NCBI GenBank assembly: GCA_902493595.1
Contig: CABUPU010000004.1
Location: 9,958 to 73,957, forward strand
DNA: 64,000 nt
Origin: an uncultured Mycoplasma sp.
Lineage (GTDB): Bacteria > Bacillota_I > Bacilli_A > RF39 > UBA660
Direction of reading: 5' to 3'
The translations under genes and the position numbers were made by a program. The stretch's first letter is position 1. Each line of letters opens with the position of its first letter. The notes under the pieces are model-generated. The model ran no database searches. It worked only from the letters and a program-made list of their open reading frames with translations, and was not told where the DNA came from. Shown here in pieces: positions 1 to 18,778 of the stretch.

Positions 1-1509
1 CATAGTAAGTTCATACTTAATATTAGATATATCTTGATATTCATCAATAATTATATAATCAAATAATAAATGAGTTTCACTTGTTAATTTTTCAATATAC
101 TTAACTGCATAGTATAATAAATCATCAAAATCAAAGTAATAATATTCTCCACCATAAAGTTTATTTGAATAATAATTATAAAAGTCTAAGAAGTATTTTG
201 CCTCAATCATAACATTTTGTTTTTCTTCACCTTTTAAAGTCATAATATATTTTTTTATAACTGTTTTATCCTCTCTATAAGCAGATGATTTTAAATATTT
301 AATACTTGAGTACATAAAATATTCAAATGGATATACTTGTGAAAGTGGATTTAGACGAAGAATATGTTCATATATTTCTTCATTAGTTCTTTCATTATAT
401 TCAACATTTAACTCTCTTAATTTGTTATCTAAAATTCTAACAATATTTGAAAGTGATGTTCTTTCAATTTCAATAAATTTATTATTATGCTCTTTATGGT
501 ATTTTTCTTTTTCTAATTTTATTTTATTATAGTTTTCATCCTCTAAGCCAAAGTATTCAATATATATTTTTTCACCAGCATAATCAATTGTAAAATCAGG
601 TTTATATATTAAATTATTTTCCATTAGTTCTGGATAAGCTTCTTCATAAGAATATGAAAGACCTCTTTTATAAAGAAAGTTTGCCATTACTGCTTCACCG
701 GCTGATTTAACATAGTCTCCATTTATAGATATAATATTTTCATCTTTCTGAAGTTGCCTTTCAATCCAAGATTTAATTAAATTTATAGTTCCTACAGTTT
801 TGGCTTCATTAAGTTTAACACTTACATAGTATTCTATAAGCTCATCATAAGTATTAAATTTTTGATAGTTATCAATAAAGAATTTGCTAAATACAAAGTT
901 TTTCATTTGTTTAACAGTATCAAAATTATTAATTATTTCAGTAATTTTATTTTTATCTAAATATAAGTTTTTAAAGTACTCTAAAAAGATTTCTCTTTTT
1001 TTATTTCTATCAAGTATAACGCATTTTCGATTATTAAATATTTCTCTAATGTATTCATAACCAAGTGAATGAAATGTTGTTACGTGTGCTGGGATATTAA
1101 AATCTAAGCAAATTCGTTTATCTAGTTCTTCAGTAGCTTTTCTTGTATAACTTAGTACTAATATTTTTTCTGGTAAAATATTTTTCTTTTCCACTAAATA
1201 TTTGACTTTTGATGCCATAGTGGTAGTTTTACCTGTACCTGCCCCAGCAATGATAAGACTATATTTTTCATCACTTAATATGGCTTTACACTGCTCTTTA
1301 TCAAGTTTTATATTAGGATCAATATCTTTATAGAAATTATCAAAGTAATCTTTATTTAACAAATATAACTTTTCTAATACAATGTCATTATAAGTATCAA
1401 TATTAAAGTTAGAGGGCACAGCACCACTATAATTTGCTAACACATTTAAATATAAATCATTTGAAATATATTCATGATTATTATATTTTTTTATAAACTC
1501 CTCTTTCAC
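1..1509 (-). CDS. UvrD/Rep/PcrA-family DNA helicase, 5' part only (C-terminus runs off the window start); putative GTG start
   Basis: My reverse-strand translation gives Walker A 'AGAGTGKTTTMASK' (around 1201-1260) and a helicase motif II-like 'IIIDEYQD'. RBS AGGTGG lies 4 nt upstream of a GTG. This ORF is absent from the supplied track because it runs off the window edge. Confidence 0.6.
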   Translation of the reverse strand, partial: MKEEFIKKYNNHEYISNDLYLNVLANYSGAVPSNFNIDTYNDIVLEKLYLLNKDYFDNFYKDIDPNIKLDKEQCKAILSDEKYSLIIAGAGTGKTTTMASKVKYLVEKKNILPEKILVLSYTRKATEELDKRICLDFNIPAHVTTFHSLGYEYIREIFNNRKCVILDRNKKREIFLEYFKNLYLDKNKITEIINNFDTVKQMKNFVFSKFFIDNYQKFNTYDELIEYYVSVKLNEAKTVGTINLIKSWIERQLQKDENIISINGDYVKSAGEAVMANFLYKRGLSYSYEEAYPELMENNLIYKPDFTIDYAGEKIYIEYFGLEDENYNKIKLEKEKYHKEHNNKFIEIERTSLSNIVRILDNKLRELNVEYNERTNEEIYEHILRLNPLSQVYPFEYFMYSSIKYLKSSAYREDKTVIKKYIMTLKGEEKQNVMIEAKYFLDFYNYYSNKLYGGEYYYFDFDDLLYYAVKYIEKLTSETHLLFDYIIIDEYQDISNIKYELTM

Positions 1510-1642
1510 ACTGCCACCTACTATAATAGTATTATAACAAAAATTAATTATTTTTTATAGTGAGTTTTATTTAGTTTAAATTTTTTGTAAATATTTTATA
1601 GTATTATATTAAAAAAATAGGATATTACTCCTATCTAATAAA

Positions 1643-2098
1643 TTATATAGCAAATACCATCCAAGGAATTATTAACATTAAACTTATTAATAAACACACT
1701 TTATAATCTTTTTTAAATAAGTTAATTATATCTAATGAAGAAAGTATTGAAATAATAACTAATATCATTTGAACAACAGTTATTATAGCGGATATTATAT
1801 GTGAATCATTAAAACCCTCGATGCAAAATATTCCATATATAAAGAATAAAATAATACTAATAATTCTTACTACTTTCTTACTTTTTTCTTCTTTTCTTAT
1901 TAATGATTTACCATTATTTTCAAAATATTTCTCTTCCATTTTGTTTTTATGTTTTAACTCTATTATTTCTTTTTTGTTTTTAGTTTTAGATTCTAATTTT
2001 TCTTTCCAATCATTTTCACGTGCATTTATGCCTTTTTCAATAAGGCTTTCTGCATCAGCCTCAACTTCAACTCCAATTTTTTTAAAATTAACTTTCAT
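1643..2098 (-). CDS. hypothetical membrane protein (charged N-terminal region, two C-terminal TM helices)
   Basis: 151-aa ORF with a hydrophobic C-terminal half; no family recognised. Confidence 0.35.
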   Translation of the reverse strand: MKVNFKKIGVEVEADAESLIEKGINARENDWKEKLESKTKNKKEIIELKHKNKMEEKYFENNGKSLIRKEEKSKKVVRIISIILFFIYGIFCIEGFNDSHIISAIITVVQMILVIISILSSLDIINLFKKDYKVCLLISLMLIIPWMVFAI

Positions 2099-2479
2099 AA
2101 ACTATTTCACCTCATTAAATACAATGTTTTTCTCGTAAACTTACATCATATTAATTATATCACGTATAATGTTAAACATAAAGATTTTATAACTATGCTA
2201 AAGGTGTATCAAAAATTGCTTAATAGTTCTAAAGCCCTTTAATATAAACAAAAATGAAAGTTTTAGTTCTCTTCAGGGGGCATGCTCTCTTCAGTTAGAA
2301 GAGGCCAAATTGTGTTAAACCCTTTAAATACGGGCCTTTTTATATTGGCATAAACCGTCATTTACCGTGGTTTTTAGTATTTTTTGTACCTAAATTGTAC
2401 CTAAAAAAGACAGTAGTTTTATTTCCACTGCCTTCTCGGATAATTTGATTATACCATTTTTATTGATTAATATCAATCG

Positions 2480-2836
2480 TTAAAAAGATCTGCTTCTATT
2501 AAAGATATATCCTACCAATATGCATGAGGCTACATATAAAACTATAAACATAATTATAAATACTGTTATGTTAGATATTAGATATCCTAATATTGTAATT
2601 AGTGCTGTAACATAACAATAACTTATTAAATAGCCAAAGCTTCCAAATGCAGGTTCATCTACTCCTTTGGTGTATCCACATCCAGTTAGTATATATGCAC
2701 AGGAATGCAAGATAGTACCACCAATAAATATGTTAAATAAGTCAGCATATACTTCACTACCTATTATATTTATATAAGGATTTGGTAGAACAAACTGTCT
2801 TATTAATGCACTAATCAAATGAATAAACTTATACAT
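2480..2836 (-). CDS. small polytopic membrane protein (3-4 TM), unknown function; translationally coupled to the upstream 886-aa gene
   Basis: 118 aa, strongly hydrophobic. There is a 2-nt gap to the stop of 2839..5499. A terminator hairpin plus U-run follows at ~2408-2440 on the minus strand. Confidence 0.5.
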   Translation of the reverse strand: MYKFIHLISALIRQFVLPNPYINIIGSEVYADLFNIFIGGTILHSCAYILTGCGYTKGVDEPAFGSFGYLISYCYVTALITILGYLISNITVFIIMFIVLYVASCILVGYIFNRSRSF

Positions 2837-2838
2837 TA

Positions 2839-5499
2839 TTATTCATCTCCTTCTTTTATAACAAACTTGTAGCATTTTGAATTTGGGATTTTTCTTATTG
2901 AAGGAGATATAAATAATTTAAAAACACAATTTCCTTTTAGATATTCTATTTGATCTTCAACACTTCCTTTTTCCTCTAACCATTTAGTGTTCTTTTGTAT
3001 TTCATTTCTTGCACTTGTATTTGTTGAACAGTCTATAAGGTCATAATATACTCCATTTAAATAAGTACCTGACTCTTTTATATCTGGTTCATACATATCA
3101 ACCCTTGGTAAATCTTTTTTCTTAATTAAATAGATATCTCTTGCTTTAGGTATTTTTATTAAATCAATCTTTCTATTATTTATATCGATAGTTTTATCGT
3201 CAAAATTATTTAAGTTTAAAATTCGCCAATTGGATGGGCTTGTAATAATTACATATTTTTCCTTTTCGTTCAAGCCATCTATATATTTTACAAAGTCTTC
3301 CTTAATAACCTCTGCTATACTATCTAATTTTTTTAAATAATCTTTTGAAATTCCAGTAAGTATAGCACGTCCATAATCCTTGGAAATATTATCTAATCCA
3401 TAAACCTCATCAAAAAATAATTCTCTTCCCATTATTTGATTAATTCCAAATAATCTTTTATTTCTTTTATTAATAATTGAATACTTATTATTATCTTTTA
3501 AATATGATGTCAATTCATTTCCATTTTCTATCTCCTTAAAAATAATTTTTTTGAAACTCTCAGTTTTTTCTGAACTTATTTTGTTATTCTTAATATATTC
3601 TGCTTCAGCTTTTTTACATTCTTCCACTATTTTTTCTAAAACACTTATTAAAGATGAATTGTTGAAATTAACATCTAATACTGCCTCTAGCTTACTTTTC
3701 TCATCTGACTTCACTATATCTAATAATCTTTCATAAAAATATTTATTATCCTTTGAAATCAATTCAGAATTTATATCATCTGAATTTGAATATCCTATAC
3801 CAAACACATAAATGAATTCTTTCAAAATAAATATGTCGTCAACATGAATTCCGGACCATGAATTCCTATATTCTTTATTCTCAAATCTAAAATCAAAATG
3901 ATAATATACATCATGGACATTAGAAATAAAATTGTAATATTTTTTAAAATATTCTATAGCTTCATTTTGACTATAAAAATCTACAAAATTACTCTTAACA
4001 TAATTTATTAGCTTCTTTAATTCATCTTTATCTTCTTCATTAAATACATCCTTATTTGATAGAATAATTAACCCATATATAAACCCAAACGAAAATTGAA
4101 TCTTAATAATATCGTATGAATCAGGTTCACCATCAATAAATCCATTATAATCAAAAATAACATTATTAAATAAATCATTAATAGACTTGAATTCTTTTTT
4201 TATTATTAAATCAAACAAGAAATTCATTAAATTTGATAGTAAAACATCATAATATATAGAATCACTATTCTCTTTTATAGAATAGTAATCATACCTAAAT
4301 AATGAATTAGTAAAATCATATGATGTCTTTCTAACATCATCAGTAATTTCTAACTGTTCAGTATAACAATAATAAATATAGTTACTTAAAAACCTGTATC
4401 TTTCATAATCCTCATTAGAATAAGCTAAACTAGCTAACGTGCTTAAAAAATTTGCTAACTCTTTATTTTTATGTATATCTTTATAATATTTAATATATAT
4501 TTTTCTTATATATTCATATGAAATATCTAATAAAGATCTCATATTATTTTTATATAAAAAATTATAAAAATTAAATAATCTACTATCAGAATCAAAATTA
4601 TCATCTATATTAGTTTCTGCTAAAGAAAATAAATCATTAATTATCAAGTTAATTTCATTATCAAGATATGGAATACTATCATTTAATAAACATGAATTTC
4701 TTATACTGTCTTCATAATTTATGATTTCGTTTTTGCAATAAGCAACTGTCACACCTCTATTTATTTTTTCTCCACCTTTTAGTTTAAGAATTATTAAAGG
4801 ATCTATATATACTATAAGTTCTTTTCTTCTTCTGTTTTCTTCTTCTATCTTATCTATTATCGCTTGTAATGATCTACAACTATATGATTTAAAGATTCCA
4901 CTTTTATTTGCTTTTATTGGAATATAATCATCAATATTTTCTACATCAAAAGAAAAATATTTTTTATTGTCTTTCACAAATTTATCTATAGATTCATTTT
5001 TCAATTTCTTTTTTGAATTTTTAATGTTTCTATTATGAATTTCTATAAGTCTTTTTTCAATATATTTATCATATTCAGCAGAAAAATAGTCACTATCAGT
5101 ATTAAGTTTGATAGCTATTCCAAAAAGTTTAATTGTCAACCAAATAGAACGACAAATAAAAATATTTAATAACAATTCTACTACAAAAAATAAAATTTTG
5201 AATAAATCTGCACATTCTTTATTATATGGTATTATCTCTTTTATGATGCATAGTGATAATATAAGGATTGAAAAAGTCATGATACCTTTCATTCTTGTTT
5301 TTTCTAAAACAAATCTTTTGTGTGTTTCAACCTTCTTATCATTCATCGTCTCTGCAATAAATATTATAATTGCTACTAATACTCCGACTATCCCAACAAA
5401 CGCATCTATTCTCACACTTCCATTTAAAGGTTCAAAAATATTTACGTTCATCCAAATAATAAAATTATAAACATTTTTCATAAATTCTTCTATATTCAT
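2839..5499 (-). CDS. large membrane-anchored protein of unknown function (N-terminal ~4 TM helices, ~750-aa soluble region with no recognisable catalytic motif)
   Basis: 886-aa ORF with its own -10 TATAAT and a strong RBS GGAGGTAAAAG-ATG. No Walker A and no classical nuclease motif. A possible Rx4H (RLIEIH) sits after the TM block. Confidence 0.5.
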   Translation of the reverse strand: MNIEEFMKNVYNFIIWMNVNIFEPLNGSVRIDAFVGIVGVLVAIIIFIAETMNDKKVETHKRFVLEKTRMKGIMTFSILILSLCIIKEIIPYNKECADLFKILFFVVELLLNIFICRSIWLTIKLFGIAIKLNTDSDYFSAEYDKYIEKRLIEIHNRNIKNSKKKLKNESIDKFVKDNKKYFSFDVENIDDYIPIKANKSGIFKSYSCRSLQAIIDKIEEENRRRKELIVYIDPLIILKLKGGEKINRGVTVAYCKNEIINYEDSIRNSCLLNDSIPYLDNEINLIINDLFSLAETNIDDNFDSDSRLFNFYNFLYKNNMRSLLDISYEYIRKIYIKYYKDIHKNKELANFLSTLASLAYSNEDYERYRFLSNYIYYCYTEQLEITDDVRKTSYDFTNSLFRYDYYSIKENSDSIYYDVLLSNLMNFLFDLIIKKEFKSINDLFNNVIFDYNGFIDGEPDSYDIIKIQFSFGFIYGLIILSNKDVFNEEDKDELKKLINYVKSNFVDFYSQNEAIEYFKKYYNFISNVHDVYYHFDFRFENKEYRNSWSGIHVDDIFILKEFIYVFGIGYSNSDDINSELISKDNKYFYERLLDIVKSDEKSKLEAVLDVNFNNSSLISVLEKIVEECKKAEAEYIKNNKISSEKTESFKKIIFKEIENGNELTSYLKDNNKYSIINKRNKRLFGINQIMGRELFFDEVYGLDNISKDYGRAILTGISKDYLKKLDSIAEVIKEDFVKYIDGLNEKEKYVIITSPSNWRILNLNNFDDKTIDINNRKIDLIKIPKARDIYLIKKKDLPRVDMYEPDIKESGTYLNGVYYDLIDCSTNTSARNEIQKNTKWLEEKGSVEDQIEYLKGNCVFKLFISPSIRKIPNSKCYKFVIKEGDE

Positions 5500-5636
5500 C
5501 TTTTACCTCCAATCAAAAAAAGAGCATATTCCATCTTAAAAATGAAACACACTCTATTATTTAATATATATTATAGCATTTTTTTATAATGTTTTAAATA
5601 ATTTTATATATTATTATGTAGTATATAGTTTTTTTA

Positions 5637-7082
5637 TTAAACTTGATTTATAAGATTAATTAGGCTATTAACTCTATTTAATATTTTTTCTTGTTCTTCA
5701 AATGGAGGCAAAGGAATATACATATTTTTTAAAATATCAAATGGTGGAATATTCTTTATAGCTGTTCCCTTACCTTTTTCATTTGCCTCTTTTTTTAATA
5801 CATAATCAAAATATAATAAGAAGAAGTCTCTATAATTATTATCAAATAAAGTGATTTTCATAAGTGCTTGATTAATAATACCTACTCTAGCTTCTTTTGG
5901 CATTACATATGTTTCGCCAATTGTTCCAGCACATGATACTATTATATCATTTGGTTCTACAGAAAAAGATTTCATAGATTCATATTTTTTTCTAGAAATA
6001 TAATAATCTCCCAATGTGTAATCTTTTTTTATTGCATTTTGCTGCTCATAAACTTTAATTGCATCTTCACTATATGGAATAAACATAGATTTAGTTAAAG
6101 AACTTCCAAAAGGGCCTTTTTTATATATACCTATATTACCCAATCTAACCCATATCCAATTTTGAGGAATAGAATATGGAACATTATTTGAATTTATTTC
6201 CATTACTTTTTTATCTTTCTTTAAATTATGTCCATTTCTAAATTCACTTTCTATTTTAAAAACATCAATTTGTTTATCTAATGGATTATTCTTTATTAAT
6301 TCACCGTGAATAGCTTTATCAAATATAAGTATTTTCAGTTTTTCTTTTAATTTTTGAACTCTACCAATACTCTTTTCCAATTCATTTATTAATTCAAATG
6401 TTTTATCAATCTTTTCACATAATTCTTTTTGATATTCAATATCAGGAATGCAAATTGGAGTATTAATAATTATTTCTCGAGATATATTAGGTTGTGCTCC
6501 TCCAATGCCCGCATTAATAAAATAATCCCTTAATGATAATAAATAATAAAATAAATATTTTGATTCTATACCATAATATATATTACAAGAACAACATGCT
6601 TGATTAGTAGTTAATTCAATTTCTGATATTCCTAGTTTTCCAATTGTTGCACCATACATAGCAATCATAACATCACCGGGATGAACAAATTTTAAAGAAC
6701 ACTCTTTTAATGCTTTTTCAGTAATTTTTTCTTCAGTATTATTTATATATCCATCATTGAGTTCACCAGTTTTAAGCCATGCTATAGTACCATTATTATA
6801 ATATTCTTCATTACTTCTCAATGGAGTTGCACCTGCACCCCAACTTCCAATATTTCCTAGTCTATCCCATACCCAATTTGTTGGAGATTTATATATTTTT
6901 TCATCATCAGTTATATCTTCATCTAATTTATCTTTCTTTATTTTTTTCTGATTAATGAGATCATTTCTTATTCCATCATATTTTTCTTTAATATCTGAAG
7001 ATAGCTGTTTTCCATCATTTGGTAATAATTGACCACTAAAGGCCATCTGAAGAATCTTTTTTCTTAGCTTACTTACATTCAT
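5637..7082 (-). CDS. hsdS: type I restriction-modification specificity subunit HsdS (two target-recognition domains)
   Basis: 481 aa with two repeated halves and conserved central and C-terminal coiled-coil spacer regions. It sits immediately downstream of hsdM. Confidence 0.8.
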   Translation of the reverse strand: MNVSKLRKKILQMAFSGQLLPNDGKQLSSDIKEKYDGIRNDLINQKKIKKDKLDEDITDDEKIYKSPTNWVWDRLGNIGSWGAGATPLRSNEEYYNNGTIAWLKTGELNDGYINNTEEKITEKALKECSLKFVHPGDVMIAMYGATIGKLGISEIELTTNQACCSCNIYYGIESKYLFYYLLSLRDYFINAGIGGAQPNISREIIINTPICIPDIEYQKELCEKIDKTFELINELEKSIGRVQKLKEKLKILIFDKAIHGELIKNNPLDKQIDVFKIESEFRNGHNLKKDKKVMEINSNNVPYSIPQNWIWVRLGNIGIYKKGPFGSSLTKSMFIPYSEDAIKVYEQQNAIKKDYTLGDYYISRKKYESMKSFSVEPNDIIVSCAGTIGETYVMPKEARVGIINQALMKITLFDNNYRDFFLLYFDYVLKKEANEKGKGTAIKNIPPFDILKNMYIPLPPFEEQEKILNRVNSLINLINQV

Positions 7083-7084
7083 AT

Positions 7085-8560
7085 TTATTCTCCATTAATC
7101 AACAAATCTAACTTTGATACAATATTTGTAATATTATTTGTTTCTTTTTGTATTTCACTAAATAATTCTTCAATTGTAATATCATCTAAATCATCATCAT
7201 CAGTTATCCATTTTATATCTAAATTAAACTTATTATTCTTAATGTCATCATATGAAAATTTTCTCCATCTTCCATTTGGATTTTCTTCTGACCAAGTTTC
7301 AGTTCTATCATGAATATTGTCTGGATTAAAACACTTAACAAAATCGTCTAAATCTTTATTTTTTATTGGCTTTTTCTTTAAAGTAAAATGCATCCCAGCT
7401 CTTAAATCATATATCCAAACTTCTTTTGTTTGTATTTCTTTAGACGCAGGTTTATTATCAAAAAATACGACATTTGCTTTCACTCCAGGTTTATAAAATA
7501 TGCCTGTTGGCAATCTTAAAATTGTGTGTAAATTGGTTGTTTCCATTAGTTTTTTTCTAATAATCAATCCTCCTGATCCTTCTTCAAATAATACATTATC
7601 AGGTAATACAACAGCTGCTTTTCCATTAATCTTTAACAAAGTATGAATATGTTGAACAAAATTAAATTGTTTATTAGAACTTGTAGTCCAAAAATCTTGT
7701 CTATTATAAACTAAATCCTCATCTTCTTGTTCTCCATCTTCATTTGTTATTGTTAAGGATGCTTTCTTACCAAATGGAGGATTAGTTAAAACATAGTCAA
7801 ATCTTTCACCTGGATCGGATAATAACGCATCATTTCTTGTTATTGGTGATTTACCATCAATGTCACTTATATTATGCATAAATAAATTCATTAAACATAA
7901 TCTATACGTACTTTGAACTATTTCCCATCCTCTAAAGGTACTATATTTTAAGAAATTTTTATCCTTTTCATTTAAATCATAATTATCCTCAATAAACTCT
8001 TTTGATAATAATAGAAAACCACCAGAACCACAACATGGATCTACTATGGTTTTATTTGGTTCAGGTCTTATGCATCTTACCATTGCATCAATAACTGGAC
8101 GAGGTGTGAAGTATTGACCTGCTCCACTTTTTGTATCTTCTGCAATTTTTTGAAGTAATCCTTCATAAATATCACCTTTAACATCTGAAGATAATGCAGT
8201 CCATGTTTCGCCGTCGATCATAGTAATTATTTTAGATAGCATTGCAGGAGTAGATATCTTATTTATTGCTCCTGAATATATTTCCCTTAACATACCATCT
8301 TGTTCTGATAATGACTCTAAAATGCCATTATAATATTTAAATAATTCTGCACCTTTTTTTGATTTTAATTCATCCCAACTGCAATTATCAGGTAACTTAA
8401 TTCCTTTTTCAAATGGTGGTTTATTATATTCATCTATCATTTTTAAAAATAATAAATATGTTAGTTGTTCAAGATAATCTTGATTGGAAACACCATCATT
8501 CATTAGGACAGTTGCCATGCTCCATACTTTTTTATTAATTGTTGAAGTTCCCTCACTCAT
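7085..8560 (-). CDS. hsdM: type I RM N6-adenine DNA methyltransferase HsdM
   Basis: N-terminal HsdM_N-like region, SAM motif 'DPCCGSGGFL' and catalytic 'NPPFG'. Confidence 0.9.
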   Translation of the reverse strand: MSEGTSTINKKVWSMATVLMNDGVSNQDYLEQLTYLLFLKMIDEYNKPPFEKGIKLPDNCSWDELKSKKGAELFKYYNGILESLSEQDGMLREIYSGAINKISTPAMLSKIITMIDGETWTALSSDVKGDIYEGLLQKIAEDTKSGAGQYFTPRPVIDAMVRCIRPEPNKTIVDPCCGSGGFLLLSKEFIEDNYDLNEKDKNFLKYSTFRGWEIVQSTYRLCLMNLFMHNISDIDGKSPITRNDALLSDPGERFDYVLTNPPFGKKASLTITNEDGEQEDEDLVYNRQDFWTTSSNKQFNFVQHIHTLLKINGKAAVVLPDNVLFEEGSGGLIIRKKLMETTNLHTILRLPTGIFYKPGVKANVVFFDNKPASKEIQTKEVWIYDLRAGMHFTLKKKPIKNKDLDDFVKCFNPDNIHDRTETWSEENPNGRWRKFSYDDIKNNKFNLDIKWITDDDDLDDITIEELFSEIQKETNNITNIVSKLDLLINGE

Positions 8561-8573
8561 TTTTTAAAACCTC

Positions 8574-17938: not shown

Positions 17939-17947
17939 TTGGCCTCC

Positions 17948-18778
17948 TTAATAATTTGTAATAATAACTTCCTCTACTTTACCTCTTTTATTTCCATTTG
18001 CGTTAATACTTCTTTTAGCATCGATTACATGTATATTAAAACCTATATATAATTCATTTATTAAAGAAGTATTATGATTTGATAACATTACTTTTACACC
18101 TTTATTATCTAACTTTTTAAATACACTTGCAAGTCTTTTTTGTTCCTCTTTATCAAAACCAGTATCTGTATAACTATTAAATGTATGTGTATCTGAATCA
18201 TATGGAGGATCAATATATACAAAATCTCCTTCTTTAGCACTTTCTAAAGAAGTTTCAAAATCCTCACATAAAACTTTAATATCATTCATACTAAGATAAT
18301 TACTTACAGTTATTAAATTATTTCCATCATAAGTATTAACTTTATCTTTTTTTCCAAAAGGAACATTAAATTCATTTTTGCTATTAACTCTATAAAGTCC
18401 ATTAAAACACGCTTTATTTAAATAAATAGTTCTTGCAGCTCTAGTATAGTCAGATAATCTATTAAATGTTTTTTTATTTCTATCTTTATTTCTCATTTCA
18501 TAATAAAATTCTTCATTATGTTTAGCTTCAAAACTATTTAATGAGGCACATAACTTTTTAAACTTATCTTCATCTTTCAAACAACTATAAACATTCATAA
18601 GTTCTTTATTAGAATCATTTATAACAGCTTTTTTTGGTGATAATTCAAAAAGAAGTGCTCCTCCCCCTACAAAAGGTTCATAATATGTATCAAAACTTTC
18701 TGGAACATATTTTTTTAGTTCATTAATTATTTGTCTTTTTCCACCAGCCCATTTTACAAATGGTTTTCCTTTAATCAT
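17948..18778 (-). CDS. dpnM: Dam-family N6-adenine DNA methyltransferase DpnM-like (GATC)
   Basis: 'FVKWAGGKRQII', 'FVGGGALLFEL' and 'YIDPPYDSD' (D12 class). Confidence 0.85.
   Translation of the reverse strand: MIKGKPFVKWAGGKRQIINELKKYVPESFDTYYEPFVGGGALLFELSPKKAVINDSNKELMNVYSCLKDEDKFKKLCASLNSFEAKHNEEFYYEMRNKDRNKKTFNRLSDYTRAARTIYLNKACFNGLYRVNSKNEFNVPFGKKDKVNTYDGNNLITVSNYLSMNDIKVLCEDFETSLESAKEGDFVYIDPPYDSDTHTFNSYTDTGFDKEEQKRLASVFKKLDNKGVKVMLSNHNTSLINELYIGFNIHVIDAKRSINANGNKRGKVEEVIITNY

Follow-up and report, generated by a model that had tools for sequence, protein, structure and literature searches.

What is encoded by a large gene that lies directly behind a type I restriction-modification (RM) operon and resembles no described family? 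The question is raised by a locus in a 64,000-nt stretch of an uncultured Mycoplasma sp. contig (CABUPU010000004.1); this whole stretch is referred to as the window, all positions are in window numbering, and related loci carry L numbers. In the window, a gene for an 886-amino-acid (aa) protein (2839..5499, minus strand, stop codon included) is followed after 2 nt (TAA-TA-ATG) by a gene for a 118-aa polytopic membrane protein (2480..2836, minus strand), and a type I RM operon identified with Pfam (hsdR-hsdM-hsdS; 5637..11357, minus strand) lies directly upstream of the pair on the same strand. An earlier note on this DNA had described the two open reading frames (ORFs), their 2-nt gap, and their place directly after hsdS inside an island of RM and toxin-antitoxin genes, all of which we recovered, and had proposed the pair as a candidate novel defence system. 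We found that the large protein represents a real and probably new defence-island family and that its C-terminal domain is predicted to adopt the HK97/encapsulin-like capsid fold, a key feature missing from that note. The proposed two-gene partnership did not hold: the small protein is a previously undescribed family and a widely shared defence-island module, not a dedicated partner.

As the earlier note had stated, the sequences match nothing known. Neither protein had a significant match in Pfam, NCBIfam, PADLOC, or PHROG, and the same was true of isolated subdomains; a PDB sequence profile search gave no match at E <= 10, and PADLOC-DB v2.0.0 assigned no family to the large protein, the small protein, or four diverse relatives. 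The architecture of the large protein was therefore read from hydropathy and from an AlphaFold model (25 homologues in the alignment; predicted local distance difference test [pLDDT] score, 84). Hydrophobic segments were found at aa 31-49, 72-90, and 98-128, in agreement with model helices H29-54, H70-89, and H98-134, and the remainder of the protein is soluble. From the N terminus, the protein comprises a bundle of three or four transmembrane (TM) helices (aa 29-134; 5098..5415, minus strand), a long stalk helix, a small beta-rich domain (aa 185-275; 4675..4947, minus strand), an all-alpha helical-repeat (solenoid-like) region (aa 281-669; 3493..4659, minus strand), and the capsid-fold domain. 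The beta-rich domain is marked by model strands (E192-272) and by the invariant residues Y192, G201, Y206, K245, and Y254. The family has a second, distant branch, for which a structure was modelled from 41 aligned sequences; equivalent strands occur there at 245-360, and the TM1 motif G.xG.L.AI.IF.AE is conserved in both branches. Since the loop at 50-71 is basic, as is the sequence just after aa 128, the positive-inside rule suggests that the C-terminal soluble part is cytoplasmic. Thus, of the ~4 TM helices and ~750-aa cytoplasmic region described earlier, the three to four helices and the soluble remainder stand, and charge distribution points to the cytoplasmic side. No nucleotide-binding motif (Walker A) or ATPase family match was detected in the 886-aa protein. 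We also considered the sequence RLIEIH (Rx4H; aa 149-154) as a HEPN motif and rejected it, since its histidine is replaced by Q, N, Y, or E among aligned homologues and it lies in the single long stalk helix, not in a four-helix domain.

The predicted structure of the C-terminal domain (aa 670-886; 2842..3492, minus strand) consists of a beta-hairpin (673-691), a long "spine" helix (702-727), a central sheet (749-823), three helices (828-855), and long C-terminal strands (857-879), and in the model this order of elements is that of the HK97 fold. Residues D823/C824, W840, E843, and Q850 of this domain are invariant. The structure prediction that the earlier note had proposed as a check thus yielded an HK97/encapsulin-like fold, and this fold, which is shared by encapsulins and phage major capsid proteins, was recovered from the predicted structures of both branches. 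No similarity to a capsid family was found in Pfam, PHROG, or PDB sequence searches; PF04454 (Linocin_M18), PF05065 (Phage_capsid), and PF08967 (DUF1884) were absent at E <= 1 from the whole protein and at E <= 0.5 from the isolated C-terminal region. It might be argued that the capsid-fold call is a structure-prediction artefact or a convergent alpha/beta arrangement with no functional meaning, given that the alignments were shallow (25 and 41 sequences), that no sequence-level similarity to any capsid family was seen, and that Foldseek E-values against PDB were weak (nothing at E <= 0.001; best capsid match, phi29 at E 0.03). We regard such an artefact as highly improbable: pLDDT reaches 82-95 in the domain, and HK97-fold proteins commonly share no sequence similarity, so that its absence here is normal.

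Homologues of the large protein form 56 clusters at 90% identity, extending down to 32% identity, and an exhaustive profile search expanded the family to 274 representatives at 50% identity. Its hosts include gut Bacilli and Clostridia (gut Firmicutes), Patescibacteria, Ignavibacteria, and others. The distant branch comprises proteins of ~1000-1100 aa from Patescibacteria, Ignavibacteria, and Exiguobacterium, which align with the other branch as homologues over their full length (hhalign, 99.7%; E 2e-26; 799 columns). The family was unmatched in 50,697 phage records, 72,556 plasmids, and IMG/VR, and no portal, terminase, protease, or scaffold genes surround the gene in the window or in related loci. 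The absence of viral and plasmid matches, together with the lack of head-morphogenesis neighbours, indicates that the family is cellular and not phage encoded. Separately, six relatives of ~700-835 aa without TM helices (P0298, P0302, P0307, P0311, P0318, and P0276) have only the C-terminal capsid-fold module of ~270 residues in common with the family; Pfam detected nothing in them, and they may represent soluble versions with a different N-terminal part.

The gene-neighbourhood analysis that the earlier note had also proposed was carried out on 15 independent neighbourhoods of the large-protein gene. An RM system lies directly upstream on the same strand in 8 of the 15, and types I, II, III, and IV are all represented: type I in the window/L039, L005, L051, L015/L018, and L016; type III in L014/L032/L034/L043; a type II-like system in L008-11; and a methylase with GmrSD/HNH in L007. 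Counting non-RM genes as well, namely, AAA_21 plus RloB (L017), a Schlafen-type helicase (L048), and NOV_C/DUF6731 (L019), a defence-type gene is directly upstream in 11 of the 15 contexts, and Thoeris and AbiE are found nearby in two loci. The RM count corresponds to P ~3e-9 under a background of 3% that was assumed, not measured, and for a small sample. The gene is thus enriched beside RM and defence genes across independent lineages, as is expected of a defence-island gene, and the proposal of an unannotated family in defence islands stands. Members of the distant branch occur as single genes in variable or mobile regions, among Dnd-associated genes with ArdC, a serine recombinase, and conjugation genes. 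In the Clostridia branch (L015, L016, and L018; ~9140-9910), a T5orf172/DUF5655 protein always intervenes between the type I RM system, which occurs with or without GmrSD or YgjP, and an 876-aa homologue.

Stronger evidence than adjacency is provided by two observations of slot-sharing, one behind type III and one behind type I systems. Behind type III RM operons whose Res proteins are 96-98% identical, the next gene is either the large-protein gene or a gene for a ~940-aa PifA-like KAP NTPase (L031, L033, L035, L037, and L052), a P-loop protein with the Walker A sequence GSGKSS followed by two inserted TM helices. Behind type I RM operons, the next gene is either the large-protein gene or one for a 1115-aa Avs2-like STAND ATPase (L045 and L046). 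Moreover, at one chromosomal site in one species, delimited by a helicase flank that is 98-99% identical, the large gene is present in the window and L039 and absent in L061. Both the fold and the genomic context of the large protein are well supported. The slot between the near-identical RM operons and the small gene shows a cassette-like exchange of large sensor genes. A remote relationship between the large protein and its ~940-aa and 1115-aa slot-mates was rejected, as no hidden Markov model (HMM) or BLAST signal connects them and the slot-mates are PifA-like and Avs2-like instead.

In cells, the HK97 fold has so far been known as a shell builder only, in the capsids of phages and gene transfer agents (GTAs), satellite capsids, and encapsulins (PMC8987985; PMC8346489). 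The large protein has this fold in common with Family 1 encapsulins (e.g., Pyrococcus furiosus PfV [2e0z], Brevibacterium linens Linocin-M18 [7bcv], and that of Thermotoga maritima [7k5w]). However, an encapsulin is a separate protein of ~240-300 aa that assembles into a closed shell around a cargo enzyme whose gene is adjacent, whereas the 886-aa membrane protein has the fold as its final quarter, is encoded in a defence island without a cargo gene, and gives no Linocin_M18 signal. It is likewise shared with HK97-type major capsid proteins of tailed phages (HK97 gp5, T4 gp24, lambda gpE, and others), but in the large protein it is fused to a TM bundle and lacks a phage setting. For a cellular HK97-fold protein with TM helices, we found a single precedent: some Family 3 encapsulins have predicted TM helices, and these reside in biosynthetic clusters and are detected by the Phage_capsid model (PMC8346489). 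This precedent lends some weight to a non-immune role, in which the protein would be a membrane-anchored encapsulin-like scaffold or compartment, or else a mobile-element maintenance or exclusion factor riding variable regions, and some contexts are indeed non-defence (L006 and L013) or linked to conjugation or recombinase genes (L027-L029). We consider such a role distinctly improbable. No conserved cargo enzyme accompanies the gene in any locus, as neighbours vary and include RM or defence genes; neither Linocin_M18 nor Phage_capsid gives a Pfam signal; RM adjacency is far above chance; and the 670-aa N-terminal membrane part, which argues against self-assembly into a closed icosahedral shell, is incompatible with a shell subunit of 240-300 aa.

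How could a capsid fold serve in immunity? Among triggers of bacterial immunity, capsid proteins are already the best documented (CapRel, Lit, PifA, and Avs7/8/10). CapRel reportedly senses the capsid protein, and CapRel and Lit recognise the capsid through short motifs. PifA is a membrane-associated abortive-infection protein of plasmid F that is triggered by T7 gp1.2 and the capsid protein gp10. The PifA-like proteins that occupy the same slot in sister loci, between the type III RM system and the small gene, resemble the large protein in being large, single-chain, and membrane-embedded. Unlike the large protein, they are P-loop NTPases, and there is no sequence relation between the two; PADLOC found no PifA match for the 886-aa protein or its relatives. 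Among the STAND sensors, to which the Avs2-like protein alternating with the large gene behind type I RM systems belongs, Avs7, Avs8, and Avs10 wrap the HK97-fold capsid protein with helical-repeat sensors (PMC13581612). The large protein also has a helical-repeat region, but it lacks a STAND ATPase and any recognisable effector domain, and it contains the HK97 fold itself.

On this basis, we tentatively propose, giving it somewhat less than an even chance, that the 886-aa gene is a self-contained defence-island cargo whose capsid-fold domain engages phage head assembly and whose output at the membrane leads to abortive infection. A single protein acting as both sensor and effector is favoured because the capsid-fold domain lies beside helical repeats, because capsid sensors are known, and because one slot-mate is PifA-like. 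The protein would be anchored in the membrane by its N-terminal helix bundle, with the small beta domain, the helical-repeat region, and the C-terminal HK97-fold domain facing the cytoplasm. Either by itself or while held by the helical repeats, the capsid-fold domain would engage components of phage head assembly; candidate ligands include capsomers of the major capsid protein, the scaffold, the protease, and other proteins that dock on an HK97-fold surface. Such "like-binds-like" engagement would alter the oligomeric state or conformation of the TM bundle, the membrane would become leaky or depolarised, and the infection would abort late, as with F-plasmid PifA triggered by the T7 capsid protein. 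A more specific version, in which the HK97 fold has been recruited into an immune receptor as a bait or autoinhibitory pseudo-ligand held by the helical repeats, so that docking or displacement triggers membrane damage, is possible, though we regard it as doubtful. It would have a conceptual analogue in the integrated decoys of plant nucleotide-binding leucine-rich repeat (NLR) proteins, in which an immune protein bears a copy of a structure that pathogen proteins bind; kingdom and chassis differ.

Several other defence systems share features with the large protein without including it. Kiwa (KwaA/B), Zorya (ZorA/B), and RexA/B have a similar membrane-plus-cytoplasmic layout and a suspected membrane output, but PADLOC gave no homology to them, and they are obligate multigene systems, whereas the large gene is often alone. 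PrrC-, RloC-, and RloAB-type cargo combines an ATPase with an anticodon nuclease or RloB; the large protein has no ATPase motif or family match, and an AAA_21-plus-RloB pair in fact adjoins one of its homologues (L017). In sum, the protein could not be assigned to encapsulins, phage capsids, PifA/KAP proteins, HEPN proteins, Rlo/PrrC cargo, or any PADLOC system, and literature searches revealed no capsid-fold or capsid-mimic defence protein.

A number of observations weigh against the proposed capsid-engaging abortive-infection protein. The anti-phage role is argued from gene neighbourhood alone. In 3 of the 15 contexts the neighbours are not defence-like (Fic in L001, pilin-like genes in L013, and a polysaccharide cluster in L006), all neighbours in L012 are unannotated, and the distant branch occurs in contexts that bear only a loose resemblance to defence or mobile-element regions. 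The structures behind the fold match are predictions, with weak Foldseek support in PDB, and an HK97 fold is no proof of capsid binding; it could instead mediate self-oligomerisation. The C-terminus-inside topology is suggested by charge distribution alone, no catalytic or pore motif was found in the 886-aa protein, and conservation is even across domains, so that none stands out as a fast-evolving sensor.

The same fold and architecture would also be compatible with a capsid poison or tether that acts without killing the cell, by co-assembling with the phage capsid and capping, misshaping, or sequestering procapsids at the membrane. No toxin-like domain was found in family scans, and the helical region preceding the capsid fold recalls HK97 gp5, in which a scaffold-like delta domain lies ahead of the fold. 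This mode of action is nevertheless quite unlikely. Phage capsid sequences are extremely diverse, which makes co-assembly across many phages unlikely; the PifA-like and Avs2-like slot-mates are sensor-effector proteins; and stoichiometric poisoning would need high expression, whereas the leader of the gene contains a terminator-like hairpin.

This leader is one of the expression signals of the cassette. The earlier note had assigned the pair its own TATAAT promoter. A consensus scan did find a promoter-like element with an extended -10 box (TTTAAA-17-TGcTATAAT; 5570..5598, minus strand), but such motifs occur at chance level in this AT-rich region (40 found versus 35.9 +/- 5.7 in shuffles), and conservation is better evidence than the motif match. 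The claim of an own promoter is therefore based on conservation: the -10 box and the following ~85 nt persist from locus to locus although the genes ahead of them (type I RM, type III RM, and pilin-like) are unrelated, and the ~85-nt leader is conserved even where the large proteins are only ~58% identical. The conserved leader implies that the cassette, which carries expression signals of its own, starts ~90 nt before the large gene. Also present, as the earlier note had reported, are a conserved GGAGG ribosome-binding site (RBS) 6 nt before the ATG of the 886-aa gene (5506..5510, minus strand) and an intrinsic terminator after the 118-aa gene (2400..2437, minus strand; 13-bp stem, 8-nt loop, and U-run). 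The RNA fold of the terminator (2437-2400) has a z score of -4.4, and none of 200 shuffles folded equally well.

Between the -10 box and the RBS lies a feature that had gone unmentioned, a terminator-like hairpin with a T-run (5515..5555, minus strand; 16 pairs; hairpin and T-run at 5555-5521). It is conserved in the window, L013, L014, L032, L005, and L051, with mostly pair-preserving substitutions; the covariation check involved few and very similar sequences, and divergent loci lack the leader. The hairpin is a possible attenuator or 5' stabiliser and may keep expression low. Across loci, the leader (5515-5598) is conserved above the level of the coding sequence, and changes in the stem are mostly between G.U and A-U pairs.

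We next turn to the small gene, whose product the earlier note had taken for a stoichiometric membrane partner of the large protein. According to that model, the locus would encode an obligate two-gene abortive-infection system, with the 886-aa protein as sensor and the 118-aa protein as membrane effector. The window, L001, L005, L012, L013, L014, and 12 metagenome loci all retain translational coupling (2-nt gap or 8-nt overlap), identity falls in parallel for the two proteins (70/70, 58/62, and 43/50%), and one terminator closes the pair. Yet the co-occurrence is neither obligate nor exclusive. The large gene lacks an adjoining small gene in at least 8 loci (L006, L008-11, L016, L018, L019, and L027-L029). 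Conversely, in a survey of 72 metagenome loci with an ORF upstream of the small gene, this ORF belonged to the 886-aa family in 12 and did not in 60. The small gene is coupled equally tightly, by 1-2 nt, to the genes for PifA-like and Avs2-like proteins, which are unrelated to the 886-aa protein. In other loci, two kinds of CBASS operon, an OLD-family nuclease operon, and others begin ~101 nt downstream of it, and an nSTAND3 NTPase gene begins ~91 nt downstream; elsewhere it follows hsdR directly or adjoins ThiF/DUF6527 and Fic genes. In its most distant branch, it is placed between hsdM and hsdS, with overlapping codons. The two-gene model is thus unlikely, and the assignment of the 118-aa protein as a stoichiometric partner is not supported.

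With at least 185 clusters, against 56 for the large protein, the small-protein family is the larger of the two, and it is highly conserved, with 67% mean column identity and the invariant motifs R.F.LPNPY, LFN...GG.I.H, and GS.GYL.SY. The protein may serve different systems as a common membrane accessory or effector, or its gene may be a small defence gene in its own right. A relationship to the TM bundle of the large protein was rejected (hhalign probability, 0.1%), as was the idea that the small gene is the conserved flank of a chromosomal hotspot, because both of its sides vary. At the single-species site with the 98-99% identical helicase flank, the small gene itself has been swapped (56% identity) and was exchanged together with the cargo. 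Over the loci with a small gene (L020-L026, L030-L109, and the window), it recurs inside or beside unrelated systems, with CBASS (two types), nSTAND3, Avs2-like, PifA-like, OLD, SIR2_2, ThiF/DUF6527, and Fic genes. In one species group (L053-L059, L064, and L023), a block of ~600 nt is ~90% identical; it extends from 140 nt before the small gene to ~100 nt after it, this last part having a conserved TGCTATACT box, and its conservation ends exactly at the start of differing cargo operons (CBASS-SAVED, CBASS-Cap15, OLD, and a 577-aa gene). In L020-L022 (~8370-10930), a gene for a 392-aa protein with a weak DUF3800 match starts 13 nt behind the small gene and precedes a SIR2_2 protein gene and then a DEAD-box helicase gene, an array that possibly represents an uncharacterised SIR2-based system.

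A conserved cellular family that joins the HK97 fold to a membrane anchor and helical repeats is new in kind, and its defence-island setting suggests that bacteria borrowed the capsid fold for immunity. If the proposed anti-phage function and mechanism are true, this would be the first recruitment of the HK97 fold for immunity and the first sensor of the integrated-decoy type in prokaryotes. A sensor based on self-similarity would be a new recognition principle, and the idea that a host uses its own copy of the capsid fold to detect or sabotage capsid assembly is directly testable. Such a sensor would also offer a way into the biology of the uncultured gut Bacilli in which it occurs. The 118-aa protein may be a shared accessory or effector module, and a small membrane protein serving as a plug-in module common to many unrelated defence systems would, if true, be a second novelty.

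The remainder of the window places the cassette in a variable island of a genome with low GC content (~24% in the window) and a class B RNase P. The nearest genome matches came from uncultured gut Bacilli, among them "Mycoplasma sp. CAG:956." The type I RM operon consists of hsdS (5637..7082; Methylase_S), hsdM (7085..8560; N6_Mtase/HsdM_N), and hsdR (8574..11357; ResIII/EcoEI_R_C), all on the minus strand. Farther upstream on this strand, family matches identified a HigB-like toxin gene with an HTH_3/Peptidase_M78 partner (12431..13850), and the stretch at 14601-18778 (minus strand) encodes a NUDIX hydrolase, an S-adenosylmethionine (SAM) methyltransferase, and then a DpnII-type RM system with two methylases (16321..18778, minus strand; family matches). 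On the other side of the pair, a gene at 1643-2098 (minus strand) encodes a protein of 151 aa that has no family match, is lysine rich in its N-terminal half, and has about three TM helices towards its C terminus; the same gene follows the small gene in L033. A UvrD-type helicase gene (1-1554, minus strand) runs off the left end of the window and encodes a "DFTIDY...EYFG" stretch reminiscent of PD-(D/E)xK nucleases. This helicase is 99% identical to those flanking the island in L039 and L061 and therefore marks the conserved edge of the variable region.

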